Below, piece by piece: positions 11,235 through 64,000 of a stretch of 64,000 nucleotides of DNA. The position numbers and the translations under genes were made by a program. Origin of the DNA: Mytilus edulis (taxonomy: Eukaryota); contig NC_092348.1 of NCBI RefSeq assembly GCF_963676685.1, positions 55,800,001-55,864,000 of the forward strand. Direction: 5' to 3'. The notes below the pieces were generated by a model, which did no database searches, had not been told where the DNA came from, and was given only the letters and a program-made list of their open reading frames with translations. The stretch's first letter is position 1. Each line of letters begins with the position of its first letter.

Positions 11235-12954
11235 AAGTTTCAAGTTGATTGGACTTCAACTTCATCAAAAACTACCTTGACCAAAAACTTCAAACCTGAA
11301 ACTTGCACTATCATTTTCTATGTTCAGTGGACCGTGAAATTGGGGTCAAAACTCTAATTTGGCATTAAAATTAGAAAGATCTTAGATCATAGGGCACATG
11401 TGTACTAAATTTCAAGTTGATTGGACTTCAACTTCATCAAAAACTACCTCGACCAAAAACTTTAACCTGAAGTGGGACGAACAGACGAACGGACGTACAT
11501 ATCAGAAAACATGATGCCCCTCTACTATCGTAGGTGGGGTATATAATAAACGAAATCAGAGACAGTGCACATCTTTAATACATTAAAATGAATAATGTGT
11601 TACATGGTGATTGCTCTTCCTCAAGTAGCCCTAAGTATTAACAAACATATGTTGTGTTCTGACACCTTATCAGTAGAGAATATACACACATTGACCGAAG
11701 GGTCTGCATATATGTCACGTGTATTTAATCATATTTGCAATCTAAGGGAGATTCTCGCAACGGGTGCATTAATATACTAGTATTCATCCGAAAGAACAAT
11801 CATGAACATCTGAAAGATTTATCTTAATCTTTAACATTTTTGTTCCTTTATGTCTTTTTAAAATAATATGGGCAAATCTTTAGTCAAATGAACGGACTGT
11901 TCCAAAATGATACCGTTCTAGTTTAAGAATGTTCGTAATCATGATAATCATTGATAGTCAACCCTATATATTAGCCTCAATATGTCTTTTAATCTAATAT
12001 TTGTTGAATTTTATGTACCTCAAACTCTATCCTTTGTTGATGGCATAAAAATAAGTAGTTGTCTTATAATTGCCAATGGGACAACTATCCACCTAAGTTG
12101 AAATAAATTGGATGTTAGCAATTGAAAGCAGTGTTTTATTGACTGTTGCTTGTTCTTGGTCTTATTGTACCCTTAGACTATATTCCCCCTTTATACAACC
12201 TAATCAGATAAGTGACTACTTAAACATAGTAATTTAAAGTAACATGCAAAGTCGATCTAGAGGAGAACGAGCAACTCTTCTCCTGTTCTCTACTCTTTGC
12301 TTGTGGGACGTAGTCTAAGTTTCTTCGAAGACAATTTCTCCCTGTTGACTTATTATATATGTATTTTTTTCTCGTTTTAGCATGCAGTGCAGGAACTAAA
12401 TAATGATGTTGTCTACATTTAGCATGTTTAGTTAAATGATTACAAACAATGATAATCCTAACATATTTAAATAAATATATAACATACTTGAATGTTTTGA
12501 CTTCAATGCATACAGTTTGTTTAATGCTAATCAACTGTATATAAATTCTTTTTTTGTCAATGTTCAACTCGTAATAAGTCAAAATGACCTTGAGCTTACA
12601 TAATTTCATTTAAGTTTAAATATTCTAATACAGTGGCCTTGACCGCCAAAAGAACACACTGTCCAATTATGTCATTTTGATAGGACTGGGATCGATTTTA
12701 ATGATTACTAGATTATAAACATTACATGTTTACCATTGATTTGTAGAACAACCAATGGTGTTCAAATTTCGTTCTAATCTGTTGTTAATTTTCTCATTTA
12801 CAGCTGATCGAAATTACGCTGAACTCAAAGATAAATCAAATTATATTAAGCATATATAACGTCTCCCAAAGGTCAAGTGGACAATTACTAAGGGTAAACT
12901 GTCTCAGTGACAAAAACAAATGAGTATATTGTGCGATTGGTATATAGTTATAGA

Positions 12955-22607: not shown

Positions 22608-24689
22608 TTTGATTAGAAGTATTAAGAAACGTGATCGCGTTCCAATATATATACCTACTTAAGATCTTTATGAAACATCTGAAGGGGTCAACATGATTCA
22701 ATATGATATAATAATTCTACCTGACCGATATATGGATCATCCTAATATTTGTAAATATAAATTATATATGTATAACTGTGTAACAAACTGAATTTGAAAA
22801 ATAAAGAAAAAAAAGTCTCTAATCGTCTCTTTTATATTTCAAGTTTATGATAACAGCATTTTTATATACGTGCCATCTTTTCTCTCTTTGTAAATTACCT
22901 TGCTTTCAGTGGCGGATCCAGAACCTTTCCTAAAAAGGGGGGGGGGGGGGTGCTGACTGACCTAAGGGGGGGCCGCTCCAGTCATGCTTCAGTGATTCCC
23001 TATATAATCAACCAAATTTTTCCCACGAAAAGGGGGGGCGGGCCCCCCAGCCCCCCCCCCCCCCCCCTGGATCCGCCTATTGCTTTTTGTAAACGAATAT
23101 TTGTTGCAACCCGAATTTGTAACACAAAAGGTTTATGATTTTCAGCGTAATATATAATGCCAATATCAAGGTCGACAACTTAGACCCAAATATGAATGTA
23201 AATTCTTAATTTGATAAGACATGTGAGAAAATGGTCAAGCTTTGTTTACGTGTACTAAGATATATCCCAGTGTTTATCTCCGATCGTTGGCCTTTAGCCT
23301 ATATCTGTCCTTACATAAACAAAAAGTTCTAGTGTACTCATGAAGATGTTATATCAGGGGTCAGATCTTGGAATTAGACTATGTCAAGTAACTGTATATA
23401 TCGGCTCAATTTCTGTACATTATATCATTGCTCCTGTGTGTGTAATGTAGTTTTCCTTTTTTTCCTTTTCTTTGATACCAAGTTTTATAACTTTAAAAGT
23501 TTTTATTGATGATATTCAATTTAGTTTTGCTTTTATTTCCCCATTTTGTAATTCTTAAATTATGTTTGTTGCATGGTTGCTTATTTCAAAAGAATGATCG
23601 GAGATCTGAATTGTCATTGTCATTGGTCGTAGTAATCGAATAGCACTTTCTGATCACACGTAGAGCGCTCTATGTCACACGCATTATACCAAAAATTCAC
23701 TCGTGTGAATTTGCAGTCTTATACCTTGACATGTTTGAGAAAGCTGTATATAATAATGAGGCTCTAGAATTATTTATCATATAGATATATAAGATATGGT
23801 ATGAGTGCCAATGAGTGAACTCTCCTTCCATGTCACAATTTGAAAAAGTAAACAACCATAGGTCAAAGCAAATAAGAGCTCAGGTCCACACTTAACAGCC
23901 AGCCACAAAGTGACCCCAAAACGACTAGTGCAAAACAATTCAAACAGGAAAAACAACGGCAAATCTAAAAATCACCCACGAAGCACACCAACAAACGACA
24001 CCCACCGAACACCAGGTTTCCGACTTTGGACAGCGCAAATAAAAGAATAGGGACCAAACTCTTCAATAGACGCCAACCTTCATCGATCTTCACCCAACCT
24101 GATGCAACATTGTAACATCACAACACAGAAAGACGCACTATAAAATATTAACCGAAACGACTAAACTCAACCAAAAGACAAATTAACAAAAATAAGTAAA
24201 AACACATTGAACGAACACATTTGATGTGTCTGTCATACGACCGACAGTAGCCTGACATTCAGCTGTTGTTAGTTGCTTGCCGTATGTTATATACGATTTC
24301 AATTTTTTTTGTATATGAGGTCGTTGATTTTCCTTTGTTGAATTGTTTCACGTGTTTCACATGCTTCACGTCGGGGGTCATGAAAATAGCCAGCTATACG
24401 ATATGGGCTTTTTCGCATTGTTGAAGACCGTTCTGTGGCCTATAATTGCATACTATACCACTTCTTTTTAACCCTGGTGGATAGTTGTCTTATTGTCAAT
24501 CATACCATCTCTCATCAGTTTTATATACTTAAGTGACCATAAATTACATTTATTACTATTTAGAATTCTTTCAGTGTCCAAATGTGTGTATTGCTAAGGC
24601 TATTATATTGCATGCCATTTCTCATAGAATCAAAACTAAAACGATATATAATAATTTAAAACAAAAAATTTTAATAAAACATTTAACAT

Positions 24690-31791: not shown

Positions 31792-34700
31792 ATGCCAAAA
31801 TGTTACTTAAATGGTATTCGAGGATACAGAACAGGAAAATACAAAAGCAATACGGGTATGAAAATATTGAACGTTAAATTAGTTGAAAAACTGTTTAACG
31901 TATGACGTAAATTCGTACGTGTCCGTAACGGCTGAAACTCAAATATGTTTTTGGACTTTCAACTGTCCCCCAATGTTACTTTCAAATGGTTTTCTTGTTT
32001 TTGCGTTGATCCAGCGTGTTTCTATTCAAAGTAAAACCCATTTCATTCATTATAAGTTAACGCTTCGTTGAATATGAATCAACTGCGTTGTCTATTTATT
32101 TGTTTCAAGGGAAGATAACTCATGTTCTTGAAAAGCAGGTGCCCTGTAAATTATGCATCAAAGTAAAATTTGAAATAGCCTTCCAGGGCGTCATTGTTAA
32201 TAGAGTAAGTGCTTTAGAGGTGTTTGCAAATACATGAGTCAAGGCAAACCTTTAAAACAGATTATTTTGGCATGATCATTATTTGATACTAATTACTATT
32301 ACTAATACTCAGTATTTATACTGACTTTTGATCAAATATTTAGAGAGAAAAATGGGGAATGACTTTGAGATTAACAAGCAAAGATTTGTCTCCAAGAGAA
32401 AGTATTAATGTCCAAATTTTTGTCTTGTGGTATGAAGAGGACCTTTGTCTTCTCCTTGTCTATGGTTTATAGTACGGTGACAAAGGAAGGAAAAGTCGCT
32501 TATTTAAGGAGTTTAATCGTCATTCGGACTATACGGCTGTAAATCACAGTATTGGTAGTTCAAAGGTTACACTTTACATTTTGACTTGTCGTCGAAAAAT
32601 CGTACGGTGCAATTTTTGTAAAATGGGCTTTGAAGTTCGTTCCCTTACTTTAAAGAAAAAAATACTTTCAAAAGATTTTTGGCCTACATTCTAAAAGAAC
32701 ATTCGGGATATGCTTTTTGTTATTATATACATTGTTGTAACACATTATTTTAACAATTTCAAACAAAGTTTAGCAAAATTAATCCGTTATTGAGGAGTTT
32801 TTGTAAAAATTGAATACTACGAATATTTTGCATTTAATAGAGTACGTTTCAATTCATTTTCATCATTTATTTTTACCCAAAATGTAAAATAAACAACATT
32901 TATATGATATTTCAAACCTTTATTGAACAACACTTTCAAAATCATTTATCTCAGAAGCATTATTTCAACTTGTGCATTGAAACAAAATATACACTACAAA
33001 TTGAAGATACAGGTTTTCCACTTGAAATTCGACTTGTAAAAAAAATTGAACCGGACCGAAACTATTATTCTAATCTATAAATTATATTTTGTATCACAAC
33101 GATTTTTCATTGCTAACATTTGTTCAATTCGATTTTTTTTGGGATAGTTTATGGTCCCATTTCGTGTTGGTTATCGTGTTTTTTTTATGTCATTTTAAAA
33201 GATTTCATATTTTCGTATGTTTATTTGATATGGGTTTTTTTTCTTTTTATACATTTCAAAAATTAAGAACCAAGTCTGAATTTGGACATATAGTTATCTG
33301 GAAAATGTTTGAACTAGGAAGTCCTTTACGATTAGTTAAAAAAGGCAACACATGGCTTTTAATTTTGAAAACTGTATCGTATGACAGAGAATAAGTACTG
33401 AATCAGTCACCTCCTTTACTGTAAAGAGTAAATGTTGCTTCTTAAGTTCTGTTGAAAGACTAAATGATGGAATCTGCCAGCAATGTGTTGTAGAGTATGG
33501 GTCGTTTGTTGAACGTGATTTGGTGAACCAATTCAATTCTGATGCCTCGTGTGCATTTTCCCTACCTTCCTTTGGCCCATCACTCACAACTTACACCAGT
33601 CTGAGAGGTGGTATGGCATTGCTTAAATGTATTGATGATAACAAAAAAGCAAAAGAAATGGTGACCTTGCAGGCGACTATTATAAAAATATGACCCAATG
33701 CTTTTCGCTAGCGCACACTGTAGCAGACATATTTTTACCGCTACGACAAGAAAAGCTCAATAAAGTTGTCTGTTGAAAAGGAAGGCATCACAAAGAGTAC
33801 ACCTTCAACCAAAGTGTATCAGATTATTGAAGGGAGAAGGATACTGACTGGAAGAATTTTCTTTTCTGTTAAAGAAAACCAACAGGCTCTCCCTAATTTC
33901 TTTGGTAGTTTTTCTTTTTTTAAAACTATGACAAATCCCCTATGATTCCACCTTATAGTGAGCTTGACTCAGCTGGAACGTTTGTAAATCTGAAATTGTC
34001 GAAGTTATTTCAGACAATAATGTTAATGACTGTTGTAACTTGCTTAGCACTCACCAAGGGCCAATACTCGCATGATAATTAGTGCCGTATACTTTGACAT
34101 GAAGTTAACAGAAAAGGGAAAGAGCGACAGAATAATCCTAAGGACCTTTGATACGGGTGTGATTGTTCTCTGTGTTCACTACTGCAAACAAATGACACAT
34201 GCATGCGAGTTGTAGGCGCAGTTGGATGTGTACGGATTGCTAGTTTAGTCTTACATGAATGATTTATTAGTTGTTGGTGGCTTTGAACTAGCTGTCAGAT
34301 AACTGCGAGTACTCTCAGATTTGTTTCTAATGTCTTTTTGCTGTTTGGATGCACAAGTAACCGGCTACGTCCAATTGTATTTTTGTCCATCTGATGAGTT
34401 AAGCCTTTTTCAACTGATTTTTATAGTTCGTTCATATATTGTCCTGTTATACCACTGTCCCAGGTTAGGGGGAAGGGTTGGGATCCCTCTAATATGTTTA
34501 ACCCCGCCACATTATTTATGTATGTTCCTGCCCCAAGTCAGGCGCCTGTAATTCAATGGTTGTCGTTTGTTTATGTGTTACATATTTGTTTTTCGTTCAT
34601 TTTTTTTTTATATAAATGAGGCCGTTAGTTTTCTCGTTTGAATTGTTTTTACAAAAGACTTGAAAGGACACACACGACTATTGTAGTTGATCTGAGGAAT

Positions 34701-37700
34701 GATCTCTTTAAATCATTCCATCACGATATTAATAAAATTCGCGTCAAGCTTGCCACCAGTAAAAAAGTATGTTTAGTCAGGTTACCTCTCTGTGAAGCGG
34801 AAATTTTGACCGCATAAAACATTGCTAAACCCCCTGTTCCGTCACCTTTAGAATACGGTTGGCGAAAATTAATTATTTCATTACACCCCGTTTATTTTAA
34901 AGGGCATAATTCCAGCAGAATTCTTGCAGGATCTTTTGTGTTCATGTTAGGGAAAATCTTCATGTGAAAAGTGTTTGTTCACAACAAAACCTTACATGTA
35001 CGGATCTTTGCTCCTTTCAAGGGTAAGAATTATGTAGAAATTCCTTGACAGATGAATCAGAAGATACTCCTGGATGAAATCTGTTTTCTGATCATTTTGA
35101 TTGGATTTTTTAATGTTCTTCGAGCTAATTAGTGGTTTTTGGTTGCAATGAATTACATGCATGAGCTTTTTCAAAATAAACATTCAGGGTAGAAGGCTTT
35201 ACTTGAAAACAACATTTATCTTTTATTGCTGAGGTTGAATGTCACCCGGTTAGGTAACTACTGTAACTTTAACGGAATTTGTATTGATCTTGTATAATAG
35301 AACAAGTGTTGAAAAACGCCAATTTTCAGAATTAACCGATTACTAAGTAATATGTTCCTTTTTTTTTTTTTACATTTTCGAGATAATTCATTTTCAATTG
35401 ATTTGAAATTTAACACAAAATGCTGCTGATATCTTTCAATTGTTAAGATACAGAAAGAAAAAAACAGTATGTTGATCTTTGACCTTAATTTATGCAAAAC
35501 TGTTACCACATTTCTTTTTGACGACATCGATATTCCAAAAGTACTAATTTTTCCGAATCCAATGATATATTATATAGCCATATAGTATGTTTGACGATTA
35601 AATTTTAAAAATATTTGGTCTGGTCACCGCACTATTACTTCTGAACGTATTTACTTTGTTGAGAGGAGCTAGAATTTTATTTAGATATATAAGAAGATGT
35701 ATGAGTGTCAATGAGACAACTCGCCATCCAAGACATAATTTATAAAAGTAAACCATTATAGGTCTTCAACACGGAGCATTATCTCACACCGAACAGCAAG
35801 CTATAAAGGGCCCAAATAATGACAAGTGTAAAACCATTCAAACGGAAAACCCAAAGGTCACTCATACCACATCTTCTTTTTATAATCTGTATAAAAAACG
35901 AGAAACGAGAAACACTTATGAACCCCATCAACAAACAACAACTACTGAACATCAGATTCCTGACTAAGGACCGGTGTAAACAATTGCAGCGGGTTTAAAC
36001 GTTTCAAATATTTACCAACCTTCACCCTTATTTGAAACAATAGTGCAACACTGACATCACATCACAGAAAGACAAATGGTTAAAACATCAATTAAAATGG
36101 CTTAATTAACTCAATCCAAAGACATATATACACAAGTGAACATACACTGACCGAATAAATTTGATCTATTATACATCCTATGTTATCAATAAATGTACGA
36201 CGGGGTTAGAAAACACCCTCTTATGCAAATTTGTGTTTACTTTAAATATGGTATATAAAAATAAGGAGGTGCGGTATGATCGCTAACGAGCTAACTATCC
36301 ACAAAAGTTCAAATGAGGTAGACGGTAGCAATTAATAAGTTATCGACATTGAACCGTACGGTCATCAACGTACTTTATCCTATAATGGTTTACTTTTATA
36401 AATTGTGACTTGGATGGAGAGTTGTCTCATTGGCTCTCATACCACATCTTCTTATATATTTCATATATCTATCTTAAGTCTACTGATCTACTATACTAAG
36501 AAAGCAGTGCGTTCATTAACGCACATGGGCATGCGATTTATCAGGTCAACTTACAGTCTTTATCAATTATAGAGGGTATACAATTATTGTGTCTAGCTCT
36601 TAATCGCAAAGACTCCTAAAAAGGGTAATGAATAAATTAAACAGACTTTAACGTCAACACTAAATTATCTGATAAAATAAAATACTCTAAGAAAGACATA
36701 TTAAAAAATTAAAAATAGTTAATTAAATTGTAACTTACGAGTGTTTTGCTGGCATACTGGCATTCTTCTGATGCTTCCCAAAAGTTTATTATCTAACTGC
36801 CCAGTTCAAAATTTTAAATTGGTATGGAAAGGGGAAACCAACATATTTTAAATGTAACCAATTTAATTTGTTTAAAAATGGCATTGCACAAATTAATCTG
36901 CAGAACTATACAAGTTTTTCAATTAACAAATTTAAAATGACATTTATTTATATTTTTACTTTAGAGCACGACCCATATGTTATGACAACAAGGTCTGGTT
37001 TGTCCATCAAGAAAATTCCTGCACTTCGAGGACTTGGTATAGCAGCAAAGCAACAACCACAGCTGCCTAGACAGAGAAAGGAAAATGCCGTAACTAAGAA
37101 ATACCCAATTATCAAATACAAATCTTTGAGCTATCTGTCTTTTGTAACTAGATTTGCTCTGGCTTTGAGGGTTCCAGAATTAGAACTCGCCGGAGTTAAC
37201 CCAAAGGAAACGTTGGAGTATTTAGGTGATGATGGGTATTTTTATCGGTCAAATAGTGCTTCAACTTCAAGCGGAGGGGACTCATATGATGACGACTACG
37301 AATCAGAATCGGAAGATGAAGTATTTGAAGGAGTGGATGATAACGTATTTTACGGATCAGAAGAAGATGATAATAAAAATTCCCAAGGGGAAAGTGACTC
37401 CTTGTGTGATAGCGTCAGCGATATTCGATTGACTGACGAAAATCAAAACTTCAGTGACAATAGTGCTGATTTAATTGTTGAAAGCAGTCAAAATTTAGAA
37501 TCGAAGTTTTTGGGAGTCTCGCTTTCTACAATTAACGGACCTGACATCAGTAACCTTAACGAAACTAATAAACTTTTTGCGTTACAATTGAAAAGTGATA
37601 CACAAATTTCGTTTAAATGCGAAGACTGTGAACGAAGTTTTACAATATATTCAGCGTACCAAGCGCATGTTCGCTCTCACACGAAACAACGAAATCGATG

Positions 37701-37953
37701 TGGAGTATGTGGAAAAATTTTCACACGTTCTTGGCTCTTGAAAGGCCATATGCGCACTCATACCGGGGAAAGACCTTTTCCCTGTCCTGCTGAAGGATGT
37801 GATAAGGCATTTGCTGACAAGTCGAATCTTCGATCGCACATGCTTATACACAGTGTTACAACAAAGAACTTCACCTGCCAGAAATGTGGGCGTGCTTTCG
37901 CTCAAAAACGTTATCTCCACAAGCATATGCTAGAAGTGTGTCGTTTGATATAA
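31792..37953 (+). CDS. Snail/Scratch-family C2H2 zinc-finger protein (~350 aa); exons 31792-31855 and 36965-37953
   Basis: Four fingers incl. CGKIFTRSWLLKGHMRTH, AFADKSNLRSH and terminal YLHKHMLEVC, typical of Snail/Scratch; short exon 1 MPKCYLNGIRGYRTGKYKSNT with donor G|GTATGA (phase 1) joins in frame to acceptor TTTTAG|AG at 36965. Confidence 0.85.
34225..34650 (+). mobile_element. Family B non-autonomous PLE-related repeat (also 47245-48085, interrupted)
   Basis: Shared blocks GCTTTGAACTAGCTGTCAG, ACTCTCAGAT..ATCTGATGAGT, twister motif and CATATTTGTTTTTCGTTCATT in both loci. Confidence 0.65.
34461..34548 (+). ncRNA. Twister ribozyme motif, family B copy (point mutations)
   Basis: CAGGT..GGGGGAAGGG...TTTAACCCCGCC-ACAT..ATGT-TCCTGCCCCAAGTCAGG.GCCTG; different P3 and P5 sequences that still pair. 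Confidence 0.65.
35692..36170 (-). mobile_element. Family C non-autonomous repeat with the common tail ...GTTGTCTCATTGGCACTCATACCACATCTTC; partial copies at ~540-670, 22068-22265, 23793-24225, 24290-24515(+), 26530-26640, 26727-26838, 36378-36455(+), 39941-40120, 52775-52920, 55245-55330(+), 63209-63294(+)
   Basis: Recurrent AAGATGTGGTATGAGTGCCAATGAGACAACT...CTTCAACACGGAGCCTTGGCTCACACCGAACAGCAAGC motif. Confidence 0.75.
35953..36034 (-). ncRNA. Twister ribozyme motif, family C copy
   Basis: Minus strand CAAAT AA GGGT GAAGG ... AAACGTTT AA ACCC GCT GCAA..TTAC A CCGG TCCTTAGT CAGG A ATCTG; P2 and T1 covary relative to family A. Confidence 0.6.
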
Positions 37954-39334
37954 GATTTACAGCAACTTTCATTAACCTCATACAGAGAGAGACATATATA
38001 TGTCTTTGCTTCATGTATAAACGCATCGCTTTTATTTCGAATATTTATCATACTACCATATTATGTTACTCCGTCTCAATTTTCTGTTGTGTATTGTGTA
38101 CTGTTGTGCGTTCTTTTTTAGATTTTTGCTATGGCTTCTTCAGTCAGTTCAGTTTTCAGAATATGAGTTTGAATATCTTTCCCCCTTCTACATTTTTACT
38201 GGTATAAATTTTATCGTCTTAATCTATAACTGGTTTTTTTTTTAAATTTAAAGAAAATAATTTGTGGTGTAACATGAAAGAAAATTTTTCATTATTTTTA
38301 TAGTCAAATCAAAACAAAATCTTTATTGCCATATATTTCATAGCGTTCGATGTATGTTTAGTCTTGTCTCAGTGGTATGCGTCATGAAAAAGTTAACAAT
38401 CTACACAGAAAAAAATATTGTTAGGGTTTTTTTAACTTGGCAAAATTTTCGTTCATTTTCTTTGGAATTTTAAAAATTTATTTTGTAAAACTGCTATATT
38501 TTGGGGCAAAAAAGAGGTCTTACTGAACCTATACTCCTTTAAACGCATATAGTAAATAAATCAACTAAAAGTATGCACCTCGTCTTAAATTATACAGATT
38601 TTTACATGTAATTAGTTTAGAATATAAAGGTTTTTTTCTGAATGTTTGATAAATCAACAAAAGTTAAGTTAATTTGTATTTGAAAAATAATAATAATTTG
38701 ATTCTTAATTAATTTAGCAAGCTAATAAAATATGTTGTCCTCTGTGAAATACAACTGTGACATACATTGTATTATGTAAGTGTGTTCTCTTGGAATATTA
38801 AAATGAAAAAAAAAATGTGTAAAACTGCTAAATTTTGAATATAACAGAGTCATTATATTGTGTATTAAAAAGATTTGTCAATGAAATACATTCAAAAAAT
38901 TATATTGTGTGTTTTGCACATTTCTGTTCATATTTAATGCAATATTTATATGCTATGTTTTATAATATTGTAATAAAATTGCTTTGTGTATGAAAGAATT
39001 ACATGATGTTTTAACTACTTGTAGACTTTTATACGTATGCATGGTTAGAAGATGAGTTCATTTCAAAATCGAATGTAGAAAAAGACTTATTTATTCAGGT
39101 TCAATCTTTCTGAAATATGGATACTACATAGTCAGTATGAAAATAAGGAGATATGAATACCAATGAGATACCTAACCACAAGATAGCGTAGGTTTAAGCA
39201 ACAAAAGGTCAACATAAAGTAAACAAAAGCCATACCGTACAGTAAGGTAGGAAAGCCCCTACGTGATCGAATATTTAAAATATCATATGAGAAATACAAC
39301 TGTCTCTCAGCGAATCCATTTTAGTTTCGAGATA

Positions 39335-39925
39335 AGAAGCTGACAATGATGGTCAGTTAATAACTGAACTTTACGATACGAGAAATGATTTAAATTTTCC
39401 CATTTTAAACTTTCCAATTCTATTGAGCAACATTCCAGTAACATCTATTATACATTGAGTGACTATTTCCAGTTGAGGTGGTACCTAATACTACAGGGAG
39501 ATAACTCTGTAAAGTCAGCTAAACGTTTTAATTACGTTGTGTTGTAAGGGGGATATTAAGCTTCTCAATGATCAAAATTGGTGTTTGTCAAACTGCTATA
39601 TAACCAGTGTAATTTTTCTGACAAAACGGTTGGTTCAAAATTTTTGAAATTTTTATAGTTTTGTTAAAGGGTCAAAGAAAATACTTTGTCAAAATTTTAT
39701 GAAAATTAAACGAGACAAATAAATTTTAGTGATAGTGTTGGGTACCACGACACGCCAGTCATTTGGAGTATATGTCTTCTTGTTAAAACGATATTCCAGG
39801 GTTTAAGTTTCTTTTACGATTTCCCGGATAAAGGTTTTAAGTCTACCTGAATCTGATGGTAAAGTTATTCTAATGTTTTAATTATGACTGTTTCACCGAT
39901 TACCACGGATATGTTTTAGTCGTAT
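39335..39925 (+). pseudogene. Degenerate Penelope-like RT fragment interrupted by a MITE
   Basis: Frameshifted remnants of LYDKRDDFNFPIVNFP..SNIP (39373-39440) and GVY.SQL.RYSR..DF.D.G (39764-39835). Confidence 0.55.
39477..39748. mobile_element. MITE with TIR GGTGGTACC(C/T)AA(C/T)AC; second, one-end-truncated inverted copy at 57697-57934 in a TONSL intron
   Basis: Terminal inverted repeats and two dispersed copies; TTAA precedes the 57697 copy (Kolobok/piggyBac-type target). Confidence 0.75.
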
Positions 39926-41907
39926 CGTAAATAGATATAAGAAGATGTGGTAGGAGTGCCAATTAGACAATTCATCTAAGTCATAATTTGTAAACCATTA
40001 CCAGTCAAAGTACGGTCTTCAACACGGAGCCTTGGCTCACGCCGAACAGCAAGCTATAAAGGGCCGCAAAAATAATATAGTGTAAAACCATTCAAACGGG
40101 AAAATTAACGTTCTTATCTATATACATGTAAAAATTATGCAGATAATTATATTCAAAGCTTAATCTATAGCTATTGCTTATTACGAAAAAAACACGAATA
40201 TTAAAGTTCAGAAATGTACTAAATTCGATATAAGGTAAAACATAACATTGGTAGAACTTTGGGTAAATGTAAAATAAAAATGTTCAAGTATCAAGCCTAC
40301 ACATTTGAGGATCGGAGATTTGTGAGAAGCAAGAAAGCGGTCTTCGTATTTCCAAACTCAGTAAATTTACTACACCGGCGATGTTTTCCGGTACATTATC
40401 CTTACTTATGTTCCATTGACAAAGCAAAATTAATACTACCAATCGGCAATATCCACCAAGACTCGCATTGGTGATCATAGGTTGGATGGATTAAAGTCCA
40501 TGCAGCACCAATCAGTTAACGCAAACGTTCCCACATGATATTTAACGTCGAAACGTCATAAACCTCTCTGGCAACCTTGTATCAGAGTAGAACGTTGCTA
40601 TCTATCTGACTGCTGCTTTTATATGCCTGAATAACTGAAATTGAATTTTGAAAGTTTTAAGAGGGATCTCGTTGTCAGGTAAGACTATTTCTTTTTGTCT
40701 CAAGTGTCATTTCCCGAGGTAAGGCAAATCTAAAGGAAAATTAGCGAACATTATTGATGTATTTGTCCTCCTGTAAACTTTTTTTACAAGTTTTTTGTTT
40801 CTTCGATCTCAATTTTACACAACATTTCAATTTTGGACTGATTTTTTTTCTGACGCAAGTACAATTAGTATATTATTCCAATCATCCAAGTTAACAGCCA
40901 GGCTACAAAATTAGAATAATTGAGCTATTTTGATATTGGCCATTTGAAAGAACCATTTACATAAAATAATCTTGTATAAAAAGGCTCTTGTATGTCAAAT
41001 AAAGAAATACTAGCAATTCCACCACTGCCTACAGTATTATCTTTTTCTTTTATTTATGTTTGGTTATTGTTTTTTGTTTGTTTGCTGGAATATTGAAATA
41101 TAATTAATATATGTAAAATTGTGTACAAATGGCTTGCAAGTGCATCATAGACATATAAAATAATTATAAAGTTAGTTGAAGACAGTCTGTTTTTCTAGAG
41201 TAGCGGCATATAATTCAAATGTTATAAGTTAACACAAGTAAGCACAGTTAATACAAATGGAAATTTAGTGCGGCCGACGCGCTTTTCTGGATTAACCTTC
41301 CTCAGTATCACTCTAATGTATCATGAGTATATGTAAACACTTGGACACGTTGGAGGCAACATAACCAAAATGAACCTTAAAGAATAACACAATTTATCTT
41401 AGGTAACTGAACTTTACATGGAGGCAGTTGAAACCCTTGAAAATTGCTGTTAATATCATACTATTGCAATTGATGTTCTTAGAATAGGGATCATGTACAG
41501 TTAAACCTCGGCCGATAAAAACTGTCACATGATCCTTGACCGTCTAAACGTCATAGTTCTGATATTTCTTTGGCAACGTCGCCAGTTTGCTAACTTGCCT
41601 TCAGCAGTGTACACAGTGTTAACTATTCTAAACGTATATAACCATTTGTCCGAGATTCATCAATCGAGAACAACTTGGTAAGTTTCTATTCATATTAAAA
41701 AAAAACCCAGATATACTGCTTGCAGGAGCAACAGGTCGAATGAACAACACAATGAGTTGTTTCATCAGATGAAAAAAATAAGACATATGAGAGACAGAGT
41801 GAGGGGTGAGAGCGAAAGAGAAAGAGAGGAATTAATTACAACAAGTAAGGCAAAAAATTAAAAAAAAAACGAATAAAAAAGTAACAATTCCATATATTTT
41901 TTTCAGA

Positions 41908-44900
41908 ATGAAAATGGAGACCGATAATAACAGTCTAAATTGGAATATTCGTAGTTTAATGGTGTCATTATTCCAAGTTGCTTTTAGGTATGTATTCAAT
42001 ACCATTACTATGAGCTACTATATTTTGACAAACGTCATTTTCTAGACTGACTTTAGAATGTAAAACCTATTTTGTATTGGCTAAAATCAAATTTAAGATT
42101 TAAATAAAACACTATAGGAATGTATATTACTTCAGTAAATCAAATATGTTCGACATCCGGATTTTGCAATTTTGAAAAAGAAGAAGAATAATATTCAGTG
42201 TGTCTTTCTGCCCTCTATGAGAATATCCTTTTCACTATAATTTATTTATTCTATTGAATGGGAATAAATTTCCTGAACGCCGTTACATTAATTCTGAATA
42301 CTTCTTGGTTTTATTTTCAGTGAAATAGAAGCTAACATTATGTCTGGTGCACAAGTAGTTAATTGTAACGAGACTGAAATACCATTGAATAAAAAAGAAG
42401 AAGAAATAACAGACGGTGACGAATGTGCTGCTTTTTACAAATCCGTCAGAGATGCTGAATACAATAAACTTGTTGACGCATATGCCAGAGAAAAGATCAT
42501 CCAAGAAGAAAAGAAGAGAAATATGATAGTAAGAGAAAAAGAAAAGATCATTTCAACCAAAGAAATAACAGACGGCGACGAATGTGCTTCTTTTTACAAA
42601 TCCGTCAGAGATGCTGAATACGATAAACTCGTTGACGCATATGCCAGAGAAAAGATCATCCAAGAAGAAAAGAAGAGAAATAGGATAGTAATAGAAGAAG
42701 AACAGATAATTTCAACCAAAGAAATAACAGACGACGATGAATGTGCTTCTTTTTACAAATCCGTCAGAGATGCTGAATACGAAAAACTTGTTGACGCATA
42801 TGTCAGAGAAAAGATAATCAAAGAAGAGGAGAGAAATAGGATAACAAGAGAACAAGAAAAGATAAAGACACAATTTGAAGAGTTCTGGAAACCAGCCACT
42901 GACCTTGACTCACTTCGGCGTTTTTCCCAGGAGGTATAAACATTGTTGTTTTTAATGTATGTTTCTTCCACTTTATTGTCGGAGTTTTTGGTGCTAAAAA
43001 AAAATCGCATTTTTACACTATAGATACAGTAGTGTTTCCCATAGAAGTAACCGTCCCATCAATCAGTAGCTAATAACGGTTTATTTATCTTTTTACTATT
43101 TTTTTTCAAAATGACCTGTTTCAATATTGTGCGTAGATGTCAAAACTGTAAACTTTTCGTAATTTTCATATCTTCATATATTTATTTTTGTGACAGCCAA
43201 AGAACAGTAGAGAAAAGGCTTGCACTTCGCCACAAGAACTGATTTTTAAAGAGGAACAAACAGAGAAAAGACAATCAGAACCATACCTTTCACCGACAAA
43301 AGAAGAAAGAATACACTCATTTTTGCGAGAACAGCATAACAATTATCAAAGCTTCCAAATGACAGACACGTGGAATGTAGCAATCGACAGTAAGCACATA
43401 TAGAAATTAAATATGAGATTTTTGAAAAAGGCCGAGGAACACACATGGAAATATAAACAAATTACGTGAACAAAAGGAAATATTACTTACAAATCAAACA
43501 TAATAATTGTTTTCGATGTTATTTAAACAAATATAGTTTTTTTTTTATGTTACCCTGTTATCGTATCAAAATAAAAAGATTTGTACCCTCTTTCATATTT
43601 TGATGAAAAAGTTTGGAAACATGGCGAAAATCCTCAAACAATTCCATGACATTTGTGTTTCAGAGATTTGGGTTGAAAACCGTAGGAGAAATTGATAATA
43701 TAAAAAATGTACTATCTTTCATAAATCTTGCTGAACATGTTGGAAAATAAAAAAGTCAAACAAAAATTAAGAGATGGTGAAACCAAAAAAAGGACATTAA
43801 AATATAATTTAAAAACGAAAAGCACTGAAATAATGAGTTTGCCATTAGAAGACCAATTAATTGTTTGTGTTTCATTATTACATTTTCATGTTTATAATTG
43901 AGAAACATTTTGCTTTTCTTTTCAGAGGAACTGGACGGATCTGTTGTTCCAAAGAAAATGGGATATCTTCAACGAATAGCCAATAAAGTATTTAAGGTAA
44001 AGTATATTGGTGTTGTTATAAAAAATAATTTCAGTAACAGAAGATAATACTTTTTACAGCATTGATTCACATTTACTGGTGAAACGCTGTCTATAAGCCT
44101 GATTCAAGCCTGATTCATACTGAAACAAAATGTCAAAATTACAATTTAGATAAACGCATATTTTATTTCCGTAAATTCACTGGGTGGTCTTTTAAAACAG
44201 AAACTCCCATTTTTTATATCATGACTAGTATAAAAGGACCTAATAACAATTAATTTGACTCTTTTTTTTTAGAGAAGCAAGCCTTCAACAAAAGACATCA
44301 TTGATAAACAGCTTGCTTTAAAGGAAGAACTAAAGTTAGATTTCTCGACATTAGATGACAACATAGAAGATCAAGGTACATTATATCAAACCAGGGTGGA
44401 TTCAGGAATTTATAAGGGAGGGGGGGGGGGGCGTAGAGTAAATTATAGAAATTATCTCGCCGGCTGAAGCGAGGCGATTTTTTTTTGGACCTTTTTTTGG
44501 GTAAAATCACGTAAAATAATAATTAAAAAAAAAGTGAAAGTAAAGGGGGCGTACGCCCTCTACGCCCCCCTGAACCCCCCACTGCAAATCACCCTTTTCT
44601 ATCTACAGAAGTTACCATTTTATAACCTAGATGGCTTTTCGATTCATAATAAATACAGCCAAATGCTGGATATCACCACTAATGTCATTCATTTTTTGTA
44701 CGTAAAACTTTAAAAAAATCATCACTGAAATTTTGAATACAAATTTTATGTTTTAAAATATCACAATTATGTACTCAACCCTAACACCCAAAGTATTTTG
44801 TTATGATTGATAATGAGGTTGTATTTTAAAAATCGATCATTTAAAAAAATGTCCTTTCACTGTTCCCATGTTAATAAAGTATTATTATCTTCTAGATATA

Positions 44901-45170
44901 CCAGACACATCAAGGACGTCAGACAGTGAATGGTTCAGTATTAGTTTAAGTGACACAGAAGAAACTCCAAGACCACATTTAAAGCCATTCTTTTCATCAG
45001 TATTAGAAGAAATACATGTTTCAACGATTACTAGTAACACAAAAGAATCTGTAATAGATATTGAAGTTGGCTTTCAATCCAAACCTAACAGTGGATTCAC
45101 GAGCTTTCGACAGTGGTTCTGTCAACTTTTTTGTTGTCATAGCAAACCTGATGAAGATTTTGACAATTGA
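41908..45170 (+). CDS. Uncharacterised ~444-aa protein with three 53-aa tandem repeats; exons 41908-41987, 42321-42933, 43197-43389, 43926-43996, 44273-44375, 44896-45170
   Basis: Six exons joined by GT-AG introns with matching phases (2,0,1,0,1) give one 1335-nt open frame; AATAAA at 45204-45209. Confidence 0.8.
42403..42860 (+). repeat. Coding tandem repeat, 159-nt (53-aa) unit, ~3 copies
   Basis: GAAATAACAGAC starts at 42403, 42562, 42721. Confidence 0.95.
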
Positions 45171-45363
45171 AAATAATTATTTTTGTTGTTTATTTGTTTA
45201 TTTAATAAAACTTTTATTTTTGTTTAATTTAAGATTTATTTGAAGCTAGGTTCAAATTGCCAATCAGACCAACTCGATCCATCTCGATAAAGATAAATTA
45301 AACCTGTTTGATATGTGGTCCAGATTAACTCGACCGATCGCTTCATGATCACTACGACTTCTA

Positions 45364-46306
45364 TAAAATTGAGAAAGGAAATGGTGAATATGTCAAAGCG
45401 ACAACCACCCGACCATAGAGCAAACAACAGCCGAAGGCAACCAATGGGTCTTCAATGTAGCGAGAATTCCCGCACCCGTAGGTGTCCTTCAGCTGGCCCC
45501 TAAAATATGCATAATAGTACAGTGATAATGGACGTCATACTAAACTCCGAATTATACACAAGAAACTAAAATTTAAAATCATACAAGACTAACAAAGGCC
45601 AGAGGCTCCTGACTTGGGACAGGCGCAAAATTGCGGCGGGGTTAAACATGTTTATGAGATCTCAACCCTCCCCCTATACCTCTAGCCAATGTAGAAAAGT
45701 AAAAGAATAACAATACGCACATTAAAATTCAGTTCAAGAGAAGTCCGAGTCTGATGTCAAAAGATGTAACAAAAGAAAATAAATAAAATGACAATAATAC
45801 ATAAATAACAACAGACTACTAGCAGTTAACTGACATGCCAGCTCCAGACCTCAATTAAACTGATTGAAAGATTATGTCTTCATCATATGAATATCAGGTA
45901 CAATCCCTCCCGTTAGGGGTTTAGTATCATACTATCATAAAATATATGAGAAGAACATAACCCGTGTCATGCCAACAACTGTTTTTTTAGAAATAAATGT
46001 GTTTAGTTCCGATGCAAAGACCCTATCAGTGAATCAATGTTAAAGCCAAAATATGCAATCTTTAATGACCTGACAACAGTATCGTAACTATATCCCCTTT
46101 TAATAAGTCTATTTAAAGGTTTTGTTAGTTTCTGAGGAGAATACTGACATTTTTGTGCTTTATAAAGAATATTTCCATAAAATTTTGGATGTGAAATACC
46201 TGAACGTATAAGATGTCTGCATGTTGAGTTATATTTACGAATTATTTCCTTATACCGGTGATAAAATTTAGTAAATGTTTTGACCAGTTTGTGATATCGA
46301 AAACCC
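45364..46306 (-). mobile_element. 3' end of Penelope-like retroelement (family A), second copy
   Basis: Reverse complement of 10397-11234 with few differences; extends the frame to GFRYHKLVKTFTKFYHRYKEIIRKY, a PLE-type RT C-terminal motif. Confidence 0.7.
45597..45687 (-). ncRNA. Twister ribozyme motif, P5-type (identical to 10912-11002)
   Basis: Reverse complement of the 91-nt motif above. Confidence 0.8.
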
Positions 46307-47297
46307 TATACATTTTTCATCCCAGACCAGCTCGACCAATACCCGACATCTACCACATTCGATCACTCTTCGATCTCTACTCGGCCATGCACGTGTATAC
46401 ATGACTGGTACACCATTCTCTAAAAATGTGTGCAGCTCTTATTAACTCTCATAACTTTGCTTCCGCAAAAATACCGGTATATTGTAGCTATTTATTTCTT
46501 AACTGTACACAAATTCCTCCATGTACAGTACGCATCTGTACATTTGCAAGGAGGTGTAAATTTTTAAAGGAGAGACAAAAGATACCAAAGGAACGATCAA
46601 ACTCAAAGGCGCAGCCATAGCGAAAATCGAAAGTTGACGAGAACACAAACAGCAGTCCACATAACACAACATAAAAAAATAAAAACTTAGCAACACGAAA
46701 CCCAATAAAAAACCTGCTAAATCCTGTTAATGTTTATATTTGTGTAATGCACAATGTTATGCTGTTCTTAGACAGTTGGTGGCAATCCCATGAATCTGTT
46801 TATGTCAACAAGCAATATTAAAATACCTACTTCAGCTATCAGAAACTAGGGTTTCAAAAGTTGAGACATGTTGACTGAAATGGTTTATAAATACATTATT
46901 CTGTCCAGTCGGATGGGTTTGTGTATTCTAATTTTAATACCTTATTTTGGTCTACTGAGCAGTTATTTTATACACCAAAAATATAATTTTTAGGACCAGA
47001 GAATTAATAAAACAACAAAATCTTAACATTTACCAATGAATCATGAACCATGAAAATTTAGGTAAACTTTGAAAAAGTGTTATTTCGTTTTTTTACAAAC
47101 AAAATTTGTTTACCAACCTTAAAATCAAACGATGTGTTATGTTTATATACATATGCACGTTCATGGCTCTTCGATCTGTCGATACCTGTATCGTGGCATT
47201 GCACAAGGTTATGTTTTCCGTGACTGTCTTTGCACTAAATCCATTGGATGTTGGGTGTGTACTGATTGACGTTTTAGTCTTAGATGTATGTTTTTTT

Positions 47298-47581
47298 AAC
47301 ACCGCCGCATTTTTGCGCCTGTCCCAAGTCAGGAGCCTCTGGCCTTTGTTAGTCTTGTATTATTTTAATTTTAGTTTCTTGTGTACAATTTGGAATTTAG
47401 TATGGCGTTCCTTATCACTGAACTAGTATATATTTGTTTAGGGGCCAGCTGAAGGACGCCTCCGGGTGCGGGAATTTCTCGCTACATTGAAGACCTGTTG
47501 GTGACCTTCTGCTGTTGTTTTTTCTATGGTCGGGTTGTTGTCTCTTTGACACATTCCCCATTTCCATTCTCAATTTTATTT
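47298..47581 (+). mobile_element. Short family-A-like insertion beginning at the twister cleavage site, nested in a family B element
   Basis: Starts AACACCGCCGCATTTTTGCGCCTGTCCCAAGTCAGGAGCCTCTGGCC and ends ...TTCTCAATTTTA like 10956-11234; flanks (47245-47297 and from ~47590) are the two halves of family B. Confidence 0.75.
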
Positions 47582-47792
47582 TTAAAGTTATTTTTATTTG
47601 TTGTTATTGGCTTCGAACTAGCTGTCAGTAAGAATGAATACTCTCAGATCTGTACTTAAGTGTCATTTATTGTGGTGATACGAAGTAAAAGTACCCTGCC
47701 ACGTCCACTCTGTGTTTTTGTTATCTCTACCTCTGATGAGTTTAGAAATATTCAACTGATTTATATTATGTTTTACTGTTACATCAGTGTCC

Positions 47793-47873
47793 CAGGTAAG
47801 GGAAGGGTTGACGTTTTCAAACTAGTTTAACCCCATCACGTTCTGTACGTGCCTGTCCCAAGCCAGGAGCCTG
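47793..47873 (+). ncRNA. Twister ribozyme motif, family B-like copy (degenerate GCC->ATC)
   Basis: CAGGT..GGGAAGGG...AAACTAGTTTAACCCC..ACGT/ACGT GCCTGTCCCAAGCCAGG AGCCTG. Confidence 0.6.
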
Positions 47874-48365
47874 TATTTCAGTGGTTGTCTGGTTTGTTGC
47901 TGTGTTTCATATTTGTTTTTCGTTCATTATTTTTACATTAATCATATAGAGTCCTTTTATAGTTGAATATGCGATATGGGTTTTGTACATTGTCGAAGGC
48001 AGTACGATGGCCTGTAGTTGTTTATTTCTGAGTCATTTGGTTTCTTGTGATGAGTTGTCTCATAGGCAATCATACCACATATTCTTGTTCCTATATATAC
48101 TCTTTTGTTGTAAACGTTAGTTCCGTCACATACCAGTTCAAATACTAAAGATTATCTGTTTTATTCCATTTTTTATTTCTCAAGATAAATTTACAATATC
48201 AAATGTAAAAGTTATTAAAAATACAGTTCATAAAAGTAATTTATATATTTCAAATGATTATTTTGATACATTATTTAAATCGGCCTGAATTTAGTTTCAT
48301 CTGAAAGTTTTCATGATTTTTTATGCAAATTCTGTCAAAATATTTCGGTTTTCCCCGCAATTTGT

Positions 48366-52541: not shown

Positions 52542-54370
52542 TTAAGAATGAATAAAAACCTGAGATTGGCATCGGGTAAATTGTTTGTTGTTGCTATAAC
52601 TGCTTTGTTTTAGAGCATTTTACCCCTAGGTTCTATTTCTAGCAACTGCTGCCATATTTGGTGATGGATCAAATCCCCAGATACATGTTTTTCAACTGAA
52701 TCTCTTAAAGAAGATTCAGGAAAGTTTGATTGCTTTTATCCCAATAGTTTCATAGATGCCTTAAGTAGATATAGGAAGATGTGGTATGAGTGCCGATGAG
52801 ACAACTCTCCATCCAAATAACAATTTATAAAAGTAAATCATTATAGGCCAAGGTACGGCCTTCAACACGGAGCCTTGGCTCACACCGAACAGCAAGCTAT
52901 AAAGGCCCCCAAAAATTACTAAGGTTCACAACATCAGAAAGACAACAAAGACAGACGCAAAGTGCTGGAAAAAGACTGAATGCCAGTTGAGAAAAAAAAA
53001 GAAGAAAAAAAGAGAGAATTTGAATTCCTCAGCTGCAGTAACATCACGATTTAAGTCAGTATTTACAAAATTATTGGTTTCTGGAATTTCTTTTTTAAAG
53101 ACTATCACCAAGAAGATTCTGAAATATGCAATACCTAATACAGATAACAACACTCTTAAATGGCTCTGAAGAACCTATGTCGCTTACCTATCTCTAGGTG
53201 CATCATCACCAATTGGCAAACACACAAAATCAAAGTGCTTGTGAGCACCGAAGGATAAAGTTAAAAGATTGCTTTCACTTTGCAACTTAATGAAGTTTTG
53301 TATTTTGCTTCAATAGGTTTAAAATTTGAGTTGGAGTTATCATCCTTTGTTCAAGTTTTTTTTTTCATTTTTAGATACGTTGACTGGATAGGACCATAAG
53401 GTTTTGATTGCATTTTATGAAATCTTCAAAAACTTGAATTTTACCTCTTTTCCTTTTTATAGCCATTTTGCATGTTGGTTGGCATGCAAGGTCATCAGAC
53501 ACATCTTTAAAGCAAGATACACAATGTTGATTGTGGCCCATTCGTTGTTTAAAAGACAATTTTGTAAAAGTTAAGATTACAATATACGCCAAGAGGTGAA
53601 AAAAACCTCACTTTGCATAGATTATGAAGCTATCTGGTTCTTCATATAATTTGCCATGGGTCAAAATTATTGGGAATTTTATCAAATACAATGTATAACT
53701 GCATTCAGAATAAAATTAAAACAAGTGTGCATCCACTGAAATTTTTGGCCTGCTTTACTGACCATTGATTGTATGTTGATAGTCCTAAATATAAGGTTTC
53801 ACTTAAGGTATCACATAAACTCATACCACATCTTCTTATATCTATATATGTTCCAAGAAAATGAGGTCAAGGTCAGAAAAAACAAACAAGAAATGAGTCA
53901 GAAATACATGTACACCTTACAATCATTCCATACACCCAAAATATAGTTGACCTTTTTTTAAGTAGTCACTGATCCATGAAAACAAGGTCAAGGACAATAG
54001 AAATATGACAACAAAAATTTCATAACATTAGGTATCTATATACACATCCAGGCCTTCTTACTTCTAAAATATTAGATTAAATTTTCAAGAAGTTTGTTAA
54101 TGCGGCTGCCGGATAACTATCCCTGTGGCTTCCTTTCTGTATCAGAAGTCACAGGGTCAACAAAAACATACATAAATAAACTCACAAAATGACATTGAGC
54201 TTATATTACTTTATGCAAATCCTCAGGCAGTTTTCTACAACTGTGTAAAATCACAACATCCATCCAGTTGTTTAGTTGTGCTTACAGGAGACTATTATCA
54301 CAAACTGAAATATTGAAGTTTGTTTATCTCCCCTTAAACATGTATAACCTGAATTTTATTCCTTTATATA

Positions 54371-55188
54371 TACTGAGCCAAAAAAATTTAGCAACTCTTT
54401 TTTTTTGAATTTTTTATTGGTTGTTTCTGGATTTTTTTTTTTTATCAAACATCATTGATATAATCCTTAGTTTTACCTGGATTTTTAAGCAGTCGTACTT
54501 TTTTCCAGGTGATCGATTTCGCGCCATTTCAGCTTTGCGCGTGTAATTGATGTTTTACCTTCTGTACCGAAATTTAATTTTTTTTTGCACTAGCGTTTAG
54601 AAACCCACCATTGGTAAGAAAAACACATAAACGTTTGAAAAAATTGCATGGGGCGTCAATCAGGCCTCTCAGAAAATGACCGTCAGATGGCTCTTGGAAT
54701 GGTTGATGCCGGCATGAGTGTTGCTGACGTCTTGGCTCGATTTAATGTGCATAAGTCAACAGTTTAGGGACTAAAAAACAGATATCAACAAATTGCAACA
54801 GCACAGGATAGGTCGGTATGTCGTAGAACAAAAACAACCATCGTCAAGAGAGGAGCGCTACCTTCGCTTTACGTCAACACGGGACAAGTTTTTTGTGGCC
54901 ACAAGAGTAGTGCATTGACTAAGGGCAGCTGCTGGTGTGCCTGCCAGTCCTTAATTGATGCCCTTAAAGCATGGCCAAGAAATTGATTTTGAATAACACT
55001 ATACTCATTTCAGCTTTTTGACCCTCCCGCGCTCCATACAAAAAAATATCCTAATGAATATGAGTGTTAAACATTCATGTTGCTTCTGACATGTCATAAT
55101 TCCATTTTTTTATTATTAAATTATATGTTATGATTTTTTAATAAAATAAAATTTTATATTTATGTTGCTTAACTTTTTTGGCTCAGTA
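54371..55188 (+). mobile_element. Internally deleted Tc1/mariner element
   Basis: TA|TACTGAGCCAAAAAAATTTAGCAAC ... GTTGCTTAACTTTTTTGGCTCAGTA|TA; from 54648 a Tc1 HTH remnant MGRQSGLSENDRQMALGMVDAGMSVADVLARFNVHKSTV*. Confidence 0.85.
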
Positions 55189-56120
55189 TACTTACTCATG
55201 AAGAGTTTTACAACTGTGTAAAATTTCATTTATATCTGTGTATCAAGGTTCCGTGTTGAAGACCATACGTTGACCTATAATGGTTTACTTTCACAGATTG
55301 TAACTTGGATGGAGAGTTGTCTCATTGGCCCTTAAAATTTTCTTATACCTATCAATATATTATAGGATTTGTTCTAACAACAGACTATATTATCACATAA
55401 GTTTTTTTGACTGATGTCTATTCATTTCTTTTATTTCTTTAAGCCATGGTGTTGTCTGTACTACAGTGTTTGATTTGACCCTTGTTATCTTCTTCCTTTT
55501 TTTTCTCTCTCTCAAGATGATTAAAAAACAGGTATAATTTCATGTGTTTATCGTTTAGTAATTTAATTTTGGTTGTTACAAGTCTTCTGATTGGCTGAAA
55601 GATTATTGTCTATCAGCTCATAGACATAATTTTTTTCATACAACCGTGACAGCATGAGTCCCCCTTTTAAATGATTTATTCCTAAGACATGGAATTTAGA
55701 ATTCAAATACACACATGTATAAGTAATGACTTATATTTTTTTTCTCTATTCTAAATAATCTAAAAAAATTTAGGGCACACTTTTAAAATTTATAATTGGA
55801 TGCCATTATTGGATCTGTCGTATCTTCCCCCTCTTTTTCAAGGAATGAAATAAACATTTACAACATTTTCATGTGCTTATCGTCTAGAGAACCTTAAATT
55901 GTAAGATATTTTCTCAATTTATGGTTTGAAAATAAAGAAGATATTTCTTGTGAATAGGAAATCTAGAATTGAATCATTATTTTTGTAATTTATTTTATTC
56001 ATCTCTTTACCTTTTTTCTCTTTTGCAATTGATTTGACATTAGTTCATCTTGTCAATCTCCAACATTTACAAAACTTAGAAATTAACAAGTTTTAGCTTT
56101 CTTAAAAGCTGTGGACTGCT

Positions 56121-63800: not shown

Positions 63801-64000
63801 TTCAAGGAATGAAATAAACATTTACAACATTTTCATGTGCTTATCGTCTAGAGAACCTTAAATTGTAAGATATTTTCTCAATTTATGGTTTGAAAATAAA
63901 GAAGATATTTCTTGTGAATAGGAAATCTAGAATTGAATCATTATTTTTGTAATTTATTTTATTCATCTCTTTACCTTTTTTCTCTTTTGCAATTGATTTG
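60836..64000 (+). repeat. Near-identical direct duplicate of 52873-56036 (runs off window end)
   Basis: Offset 7963/7964; the only difference I saw is one extra A in an A-run (~60955). Confidence 0.95.
62335..63152 (+). mobile_element. Duplicate of the Tc1/mariner relic (part of the segmental duplication)
   Basis: Identical to 54371-55188, offset 7964. Confidence 0.85.

Follow-up and report, generated by a model that had tools for sequence, protein, structure and literature searches.

The question raised by a 64,000-nucleotide (nt) stretch of the Mytilus edulis genome (GCF_963676685.1, NC_092348.1 positions 55,800,001 to 55,864,000; hereafter the window) is which element carries its several diverged repeat families, which an earlier sequence-only reading took to share a covarying twister ribozyme fold, and whether RNA made from them cuts itself. 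The answer reached here is that a real and abundant type-P5 twister fold, lacking helix P1, resides in the 3′ untranslated regions (UTRs) of Naiad Penelope-like elements. Fold and host are firm. The motif is predicted to be self-cleaving, and it probably takes the role that hammerhead ribozymes have in other Penelope-like elements. The twister class was reportedly described by Roth et al. in 2014.

The intact family A copy at 10912 to 11002 on the forward strand gives the layout of the fold. Its parts follow in the order P5, 3′ strand of P2, G-A, 3′ strand of pseudoknot T1, a linker of 20 to 22 nt, UAA, P2, pseudoknot T2, P3, P4, loop L4, P4, and P5, which makes it a type-P5 permutation of the twister. 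P5 joins 10912-10921 to 10993-11002, P2 joins 10925-10928 to 10958-10961, the catalytic G-A lies at 10929-10930, T1 joins 10931-10933 to 10981-10983, T2 joins 10962-10963 to 10986-10987, P3 spans 10964-10975, and P4 joins 10976-10979 to 10988-10991, with the predicted cut between 10955 and 10956. The Rfam model Twister-P5 matched 10925-10991 with 23.4 bits (E 0.0044 in a 211-nt search). A second intact family A fold lies at 45597 to 45687 on the reverse strand (predicted cut 45644/45643), and both window copies have a core identical to that of 28 of 30 loci chosen by their open reading frame (ORF) end. This core follows the Rfam twister consensus letter for letter with three exceptions, namely P1, the type of one P4 pair, and T2, which has a G-U wobble. 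The wobble is equivalent to C31U, tolerated in published mutagenesis (PMC5113685), and loss of P1 is tolerated as well, P1 being conserved but nonessential (PMC5113685, PMC11662667). In family majorities the UAA, the general-base G and A, and L4 also match the Rfam consensus, with lesions in the window copies of families C and D and in the copy at 24013-24101. Elsewhere in the same genome, a canonical type-P1 twister was found at L370:1522-1581 (Rfam twister-P1, 56 bits, E 1.6e-12 in 141 nt). A search for families with other P4 pairs returned six matches, consisting of five mutated copies and one canonical twister.

The claim that a very abundant repeat superfamily carries the fold was borne out by a genome-wide search, in which the core pattern matched 12,952 times compared to 0 for a reversed control; the 40-nt 3′ half of family A alone has 1,989 exact occurrences. 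To this can be added an alignment-built model that scored seven window copies above 45 bits, largely by construction, with the next match at 22 bits.

That structure rather than sequence had been conserved, also proposed earlier, is supported by the pairing and double changes seen across 15 real copies. Thirty loci were fetched per family, plus 20 more for families F and G; DNA searches with the 3′ UTR passed over common words and recovered only a minority of young copies. The covariation test covered 18 pairs, with P5 outside the count and family D rows shifted one column in P2. In these copies 91.8% of cells pair, compared to 27 to 47% for slid-partner controls; 6 of the 18 pairs change on both sides, and 27 cells are double-changed. 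By helix, pairing reaches 89.8% in P2 and 96.6% in P4, while T1 is 97.8% paired with one double change and T2 is 90% paired. Neither P4 nor T2, with its G-U wobble, shows a double change among this genome's families. None of 500 shuffles reached the covariation score, 21 reached the count of double-changed pairs, and 492 reached the count of pair types; the 15 rows represent about three related lineages, and these figures are not probabilities and stand below R-scape grade.

Covariation of the fold is nonetheless real at the family level, and for P2, T1, and P3 it extends beyond the window copies from which compensatory changes had been proposed. The P2 pair adjoining the cut site is C-G in families A and B, A-U in C, and U-A in F, which is a new family; beside the AA of L4, the T1 pair goes from C-G to U-A in C and F; and the pair closing P3 goes from C-G to U-A. 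As had been described, P5 varies too, also at the family level: it has 10 bp in family A, and in B and C it is shortened to 5 bp and accompanied by a distal 7-bp helix. Of the P3 variants, a difference at pair 2 was retained (G-C in A, C, and F; A-U in B and D), but the ACGT/ACGT form at 47838-47850 proved private to one copy, occurring in 1 of 30 family D loci, with the family B form in 16 of 30, and does not count as family covariation. The four copies on which the proposal drew (families B, C, and D, and 24013-24101) are damaged, each with core lesions.

The host of the motif was identified from the sequence upstream of it. A reverse transcriptase (RT) frame end precedes the family A motif at 46305-46006. 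Ten family A loci were extended to 10 kb, of which four reach the endonuclease, and the family A ORF (loci L151, L153, L155, and L156) has 969 codons with four in-frame UGA. It encodes an N-terminal GIY-YIG, a KR-rich block, CxC, GPKY, DKA, and YLDD, and upstream of GIY-YIG a Zn-finger-like motif could be read, like that of published Naiad proteins. GxKF/Y, CxC, DKA, the KR-rich block, and N-terminal GIY-YIG are Naiad signatures (PMC8557442, section 6). Pfam and PDB sequence searches with the ORF gave nothing useful, and an AlphaFold2 model built without an alignment (predicted local distance difference test [pLDDT], 34) was not used. With a 5′ UTR of 383 nt, a 3′ UTR of 639 nt containing a hairpin like a selenocysteine insertion sequence (SECIS), and copies about 99.5% identical, family A is, by its sequence, a young Naiad unit of 4,031 nt. 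Its body size falls within the 3.4 to 4.4 kb of Naiads, and 5′ truncation, partial tandems, and inverted truncated copies are further Naiad traits found here.

The position of the motif relative to the RT is shared by the other families. The motif lies about 280 nt before the fixed 3′ end of the elements, and in families B, C, D, and F it lies 380 to 480 nt behind a Naiad RT end. The core was downstream in 23 of 25 family B loci chosen by ORF end, and the RT link was seen for C in L088, for D in L092, L096, and L100, and for F in the 2 of 20 new loci retaining RT. Where the frame is intact, RT ends of the five motif-bearing families are about 64 to 81% identical to family A. All sites can be firmly assigned to the 3′ ends of 5′-truncated Naiad Penelope-like elements. 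A metagenome contig with 81% protein identity also contains the motif, in a version whose P5 differs and whose cut site has CAA, and two other metagenome contigs are unit length with terminal overlaps. Read by eye in the accessible supplement of PMC8557442, the same fold is present in four published bivalve tails, namely those of Naiad_Mgal, Naiad_Bpla, and two assigned by file order to Naiad_Mphi and Naiad_Scon. These four have two palindromes, the second of odd length, and further double changes in P2, T2, P3, P4, and P5, and their T1 is shorter. A second Naiad lineage is also represented among the published consensus tails. For Naiad_Mcor, read by eye in the same file, the tail is without the fold. 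In the record before it, a tail with a 10-nt palindrome in a different structured motif, unlike this twister, was noted.

Family A also has the features of a mussel-type selenoprotein Naiad, as four in-frame UGA accompany SECIS-like hairpins at 10652-10716 (forward strand) and 45884-45948 (reverse strand). The former scored 30.9 bits with Rfam SECIS_1, below the gathering score of 35, and fits the four UGA of the full ORF. In the accessible part of Craig et al. (PMC8557442), selenoprotein Naiads are listed for clams and spiders only. The 5′ UTR (L213:1158-1540) contains splice-acceptor-like tracts, and copy L212 begins at one of them.

A feature that went unmentioned in the earlier reading is the lack of P1. 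The helix is absent, with U opposite U followed by two palindromes of 10 and 12 nt (10935 to 10956, forward strand) at P1's expected place, and 9 of 10 real segments have both at constant positions. Their centers vary, being GATC, GTAC, or GCGC in one and CATG, CTAG, or ACGT in the other. In family F, for example, the first palindrome has GTAC in 6 of 14 loci and GATC in 8 of 14, a swap of the two central bases that keeps self-complementarity and for which a hairpin could not account. At least 6 changes keeping self-complementarity were counted on a tree of RT ends. In this tree the metagenome element belongs to the A group, F stands apart, and B and D go together; the unreliable rows C and D2 were left out, and C was positioned beside F on the basis of its tail. 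The predicted gain from dimerization is 10.6 to 16.6 kcal/mol, compared to 5 to 7 for shuffles. Pairing between two molecules would be the simplest reading of these palindromes, with a dimeric DNA-binding site as another, and hammerheads of other Penelope-like elements cut as dimers via a palindrome (PMC6765202). More tentatively, palindromes pairing two copies would favor cutting in tandem transcripts over single dispersed copies. A domain-swapped dimer forming a normal P1 was considered and rejected, as neither palindrome is complementary to the other.

Judged from its conserved parts, the twister motif is likely to be active. One raw RNA run, of which 6% was read with strandedness assumed, contains a suggestive signal: on the presumed sense strand, depth falls from 605 to 459, more than at any other step in that column, at a bin edge coinciding with the predicted cut, whereas the other strand goes from 776 to 765. 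Depth in this run was 1 to 4 in the 5′ UTR compared to 300 to 450 at the motif. A search of sequencing runs for the stretch listed none recorded as RNA. Genomic copy ends were surveyed in 90 family A copies (the first 30 listed places and 60 of the next 70), of which 83 align to +278 to +282, the fixed 3′ end.

Several results weigh against a self-cleaving, dimer-forming twister. Only 1 of the 90 copies starts at the cut site and 89 read through it, so genomic 5′ ends show no sign of cutting; a cut site that sets 5′ ends was rejected on this count and on another set, where 2 of 30 ends were near, at −8 and −14. In the RNA run, steps of 120, 127, and 168 occur elsewhere on the other strand, no pile-up of read ends was flagged at the site, and a stricter mapping at 93% likeness gave no such depth shift and no joints. 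The run also gave no back-joints and no circle, from a library type ill-suited to circles. The Twister-P5 score is under the gathering score of 37.6, and an Rfam scan of the whole window reported no twister. Monomer folding, in a model that leaves pseudoknots outside, prefers nontwister alternatives by at least 3.7 kcal/mol in 15 of 15 rows. Two palindromes appear in 4 to 12% of single-segment shuffles, so that their weight rests on position and covariation, and since other twisters can do without P1, a dimer may be unneeded. The idea that a shifted helix covering the cut site keeps the monomer inactive was also considered and, as a general mechanism, discarded, since its pairing of 0.99 in family A drops to 0.0 to 0.2 in B, C, and F.

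These objections bear differently on the explanations that compete with a cleaving twister. Least credible, to the point of being negligible, is that the pairing arose by chance from G-rich and C-rich runs in related repeats; few lineages are independent and related rows inflate shuffle tests, but such runs would have to account for the Rfam core match, the empty reversed control, the 27 to 47% of slid controls, and three pair types at one P2 position. Very improbable too is the retrozyme-like reading that had been drawn from the repeats, in which short noncoding ribozyme units spread alone as small circles. Most copies are short and noncoding, and a 2026 preprint, in its accessible part, derives animal retrozymes from Penelope-like terminal repeats (10.64898/2026.07.22.740005). 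However, the motif lies behind related RT ends in families A, B, C, D, and F, and the repeats are thus truncated tails of autonomous, protein-coding 4-kb Naiads rather than retrozymes, dispersed and with one motif per unit. Their 3′ ends are fixed while 5′ ends scatter up to the full ORF, the unit is 4,031 nt, none of the 12 tandem-repeat rows in the window overlaps a motif, no short tandem array there holds one, and the window has no Rfam hammerhead match. For families A, B, D, and F the retrozyme-like reading is largely refuted.

Two further explanations keep the twister and differ in what it does. An active monomeric twister without P1, in which the palindromes would, for instance, dimerize element RNA for RT or be bound as DNA by a dimeric protein, with read-through transcripts trimmed or destabilized by cleavage, is unlikely yet deserves the most weight among the rivals. 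P1 is dispensable (PMC5113685, PMC11662667), P1-less twisters work in Schistosoma Perere-3 (PMC8501958), and the sense-strand RNA step comes mostly from dispersed single copies, judging by the low depth in the 5′ UTR; but if monomers were cut fast at a site 280 nt from where priming begins, the templates left would be 280 nt long, a length found in 1 of 90 copies, and the palindromes sit exactly at the P1 position in all families. Somewhat less likely still is a twister-derived structure that does not cleave and persists because the Naiad RT/endonuclease uses it as a signal for recognition or packaging. The lack of a direct sign of cutting in copy ends or the RNA run, the score under the Rfam threshold, and the competing monomer folds would agree with this, but the unpaired UAA, G-A, and L4 are kept across families whose stems have changed, and a structural role would not obviously need them.

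For the preferred reading, a self-cleaving type-P5 twister in the hammerhead's role, the tandem copies suggest how a site that is cut could also be copied. Among 41 rows, 4 head-to-tail pairs at 4,031 to 4,043 nt were found, 17 of 19 loci that span the junction share the same 50 nt there, 16 of 30 loci with an ORF start continue upstream through the site, and one locus has more than two units in a row. Such seamless tandems fit a circular or continuous template. Because reverse transcription almost always passes through the site, templates would carry it intact, and read-through templates together with seamless tandems favor cutting in tandem transcripts followed by re-joining. We infer the cutting and hypothesize that circles form and that a dimer gates the reaction. 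A partial-tandem transcript would hold two motif copies, the palindromes would favor this two-copy state for cutting, and cutting at both would release unit-length RNA, which could be re-joined into a circle, or the intact site could be kept otherwise. Reverse transcription would begin at the fixed 3′ end, pass through the site, and could go round more than once, which would give both truncated tails and seamless tandems. In its most specific form, this proposal is that bivalve Naiads swapped the hammerhead for a dimer-gated twister, whose tandem copies pair via twin palindromes, cut, and release a circularized 4-kb rolling template. This version is possible, with the odds somewhat against it. 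If true, it would represent a natural obligate-dimer twister, convergent with the dimeric hammerhead trick, with over 12,000 near-intact copies in each genome.

The remaining copies in the window range from nearly complete tails to remnants, and rereading of the window confirmed the cited letters at the cited positions. The intact folds belong to two 5′-truncated family A copies, at 10397 to 11235 on the forward strand (final 66 codons of the RT ORF, 3′ UTR, and fixed 3′ end; 99.3% to the tandem unit L213) and at 45364 to 46307 on the reverse strand (99.9%; final 100 RT codons and 3′ UTR). The family B tail fragment at 34221 to 34654 (forward strand), from a family that sits about 440 nt behind the RT C terminus, has a damaged twister at 34461 to 34548 (predicted cut 34499/34500) with a P3-closing mismatch, U changed to C before T1, and an extra A. 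In the family C tail at 35676 to 36175 (reverse strand), the twister at 35953 to 36034 (predicted cut 35997/35996) has lost one L4 adenine, one P4 pair, and the first palindrome. The family D tail at 47588 to 48096 (forward strand), whose upstream part is at 47138-47297, has a twister at 47793 to 47873 (predicted cut 47828/47829) that is unable to form T2. Inside this D-type copy lies an older family A tail (47295 to 47578, forward strand) with the 3′ half only of the core (47298-47344); it starts within about 3 nt of the predicted cut, at an edge made ambiguous by a T-run of the host. An old C/D-related Naiad tail on the reverse strand (23779 to 24225) holds the decayed copy at 24013-24101, where a twister remnant is present as reported but UAA is gone.

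Other features were noted in the window. About 80 nt upstream of the twister in families B, C, and D (34385-34400 in the window) there is a word like a hammerhead half core, and a matching second half is absent; hammerhead half cores are mentioned by Craig et al. (PMC8557442). A second conserved block at the extreme 3′ end (11095-11235, and the final 200 nt in every family) has a G-rich start and words common to families A to F and is possibly an RT recognition structure. A 393-amino-acid open frame at 36772-37953 (forward strand) has C-terminal C2H2 zinc fingers, which we take to be of the Snail/Scratch type. A 213-amino-acid open frame at 42298-42939 (forward strand) is built around a 159-nt tandem repeat of 2.9 copies, and 52992-56000 and 60956-64000 are near-identical duplicates spaced 7,964 nt apart.

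Minimal type I hammerheads in the pseudo-long terminal repeats (pLTRs) of Penelope-like elements were reportedly described by Cervera and de la Pena in 2014 and Lunse et al. in 2017. The Naiad motif resembles those of Penelope, Poseidon, and Neptune (PMC7761336, PMC6765202) in its location near the element 3′ end, replacement of a helix by a palindrome, tandem context, and dimer model, but it belongs to a different ribozyme class and has two palindromes instead of one. With the type-P5 twister of Rfam (RF02684, clan CL00120) it shares the P5-open strand order, UAA at the cut, P2, P4, both pseudoknots, the catalytic G-A, and L4, and differs in having two palindromes instead of P1, the T2 G-U wobble, P3 besides P5, a subgathering score, and a eukaryotic retroelement as host. 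The T-variant twisters of Schistosoma Perere-3 and RTE (PMC8501958, PMC7761336) are likewise retroelement twisters with a degenerate P1; those are type P1 at the 5′ end, where the cut defines the element 5′ end, whereas the motif here is type P5 in a 3′ UTR, with insertions that read through. Animal non-LTR retrozymes (Cervera and de la Pena 2020; 10.64898/2026.07.22.740005) are also abundant ribozyme-bearing mollusc repeats linked to Penelope-like elements, but they are short, noncoding, tandem, and hammerhead bearing, unlike these fragments of a 4-kb coding element.

The elements themselves agree with the Naiads of Craig et al. (2021; PMC8557442) in GIY-YIG, CxC, DKA, the KR-rich block, 5′ truncation, partial tandems, and UGA with SECIS, and two family A UGA positions coincide with those of Naiad_Mmer and Naiad_Scon. 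In its accessible text and supplement, that paper reports no canonical hammerhead, and the word twister is absent. The available PMC8501958 supplement has no Mytilus or Penelope, PMC7761336 in its accessible part treats "twister ribozyme" and "Mytilus" separately, and the accessible part of the 2026 retrozyme preprint has no "twister." No literature joining the twister with Naiad or a mussel retroelement was found in a search that did not extend to the PMC11662667 supplement, which may list mussel twisters. A P1-less type-P5 twister variant in a host said to lack ribozymes is what is new here, with no published report found. Its twin palindromes define a variant that the whole-window Rfam scan missed, its thousands of copies in host transcripts could affect mRNA stability, and young family A offers an intact element and a 91-nt RNA for testing ribozyme function in Penelope-like retrotransposition. 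In the accessible text of Craig et al. (PMC8557442), hammerhead absence in Naiads is taken to argue that ribozymes may be dispensable for, or parasites of, Penelope-like elements. That a young Naiad, still amplifying, carries another class of ribozyme in the same position suggests instead that self-cleavage may be required and that the class of ribozyme providing it may be interchangeable.

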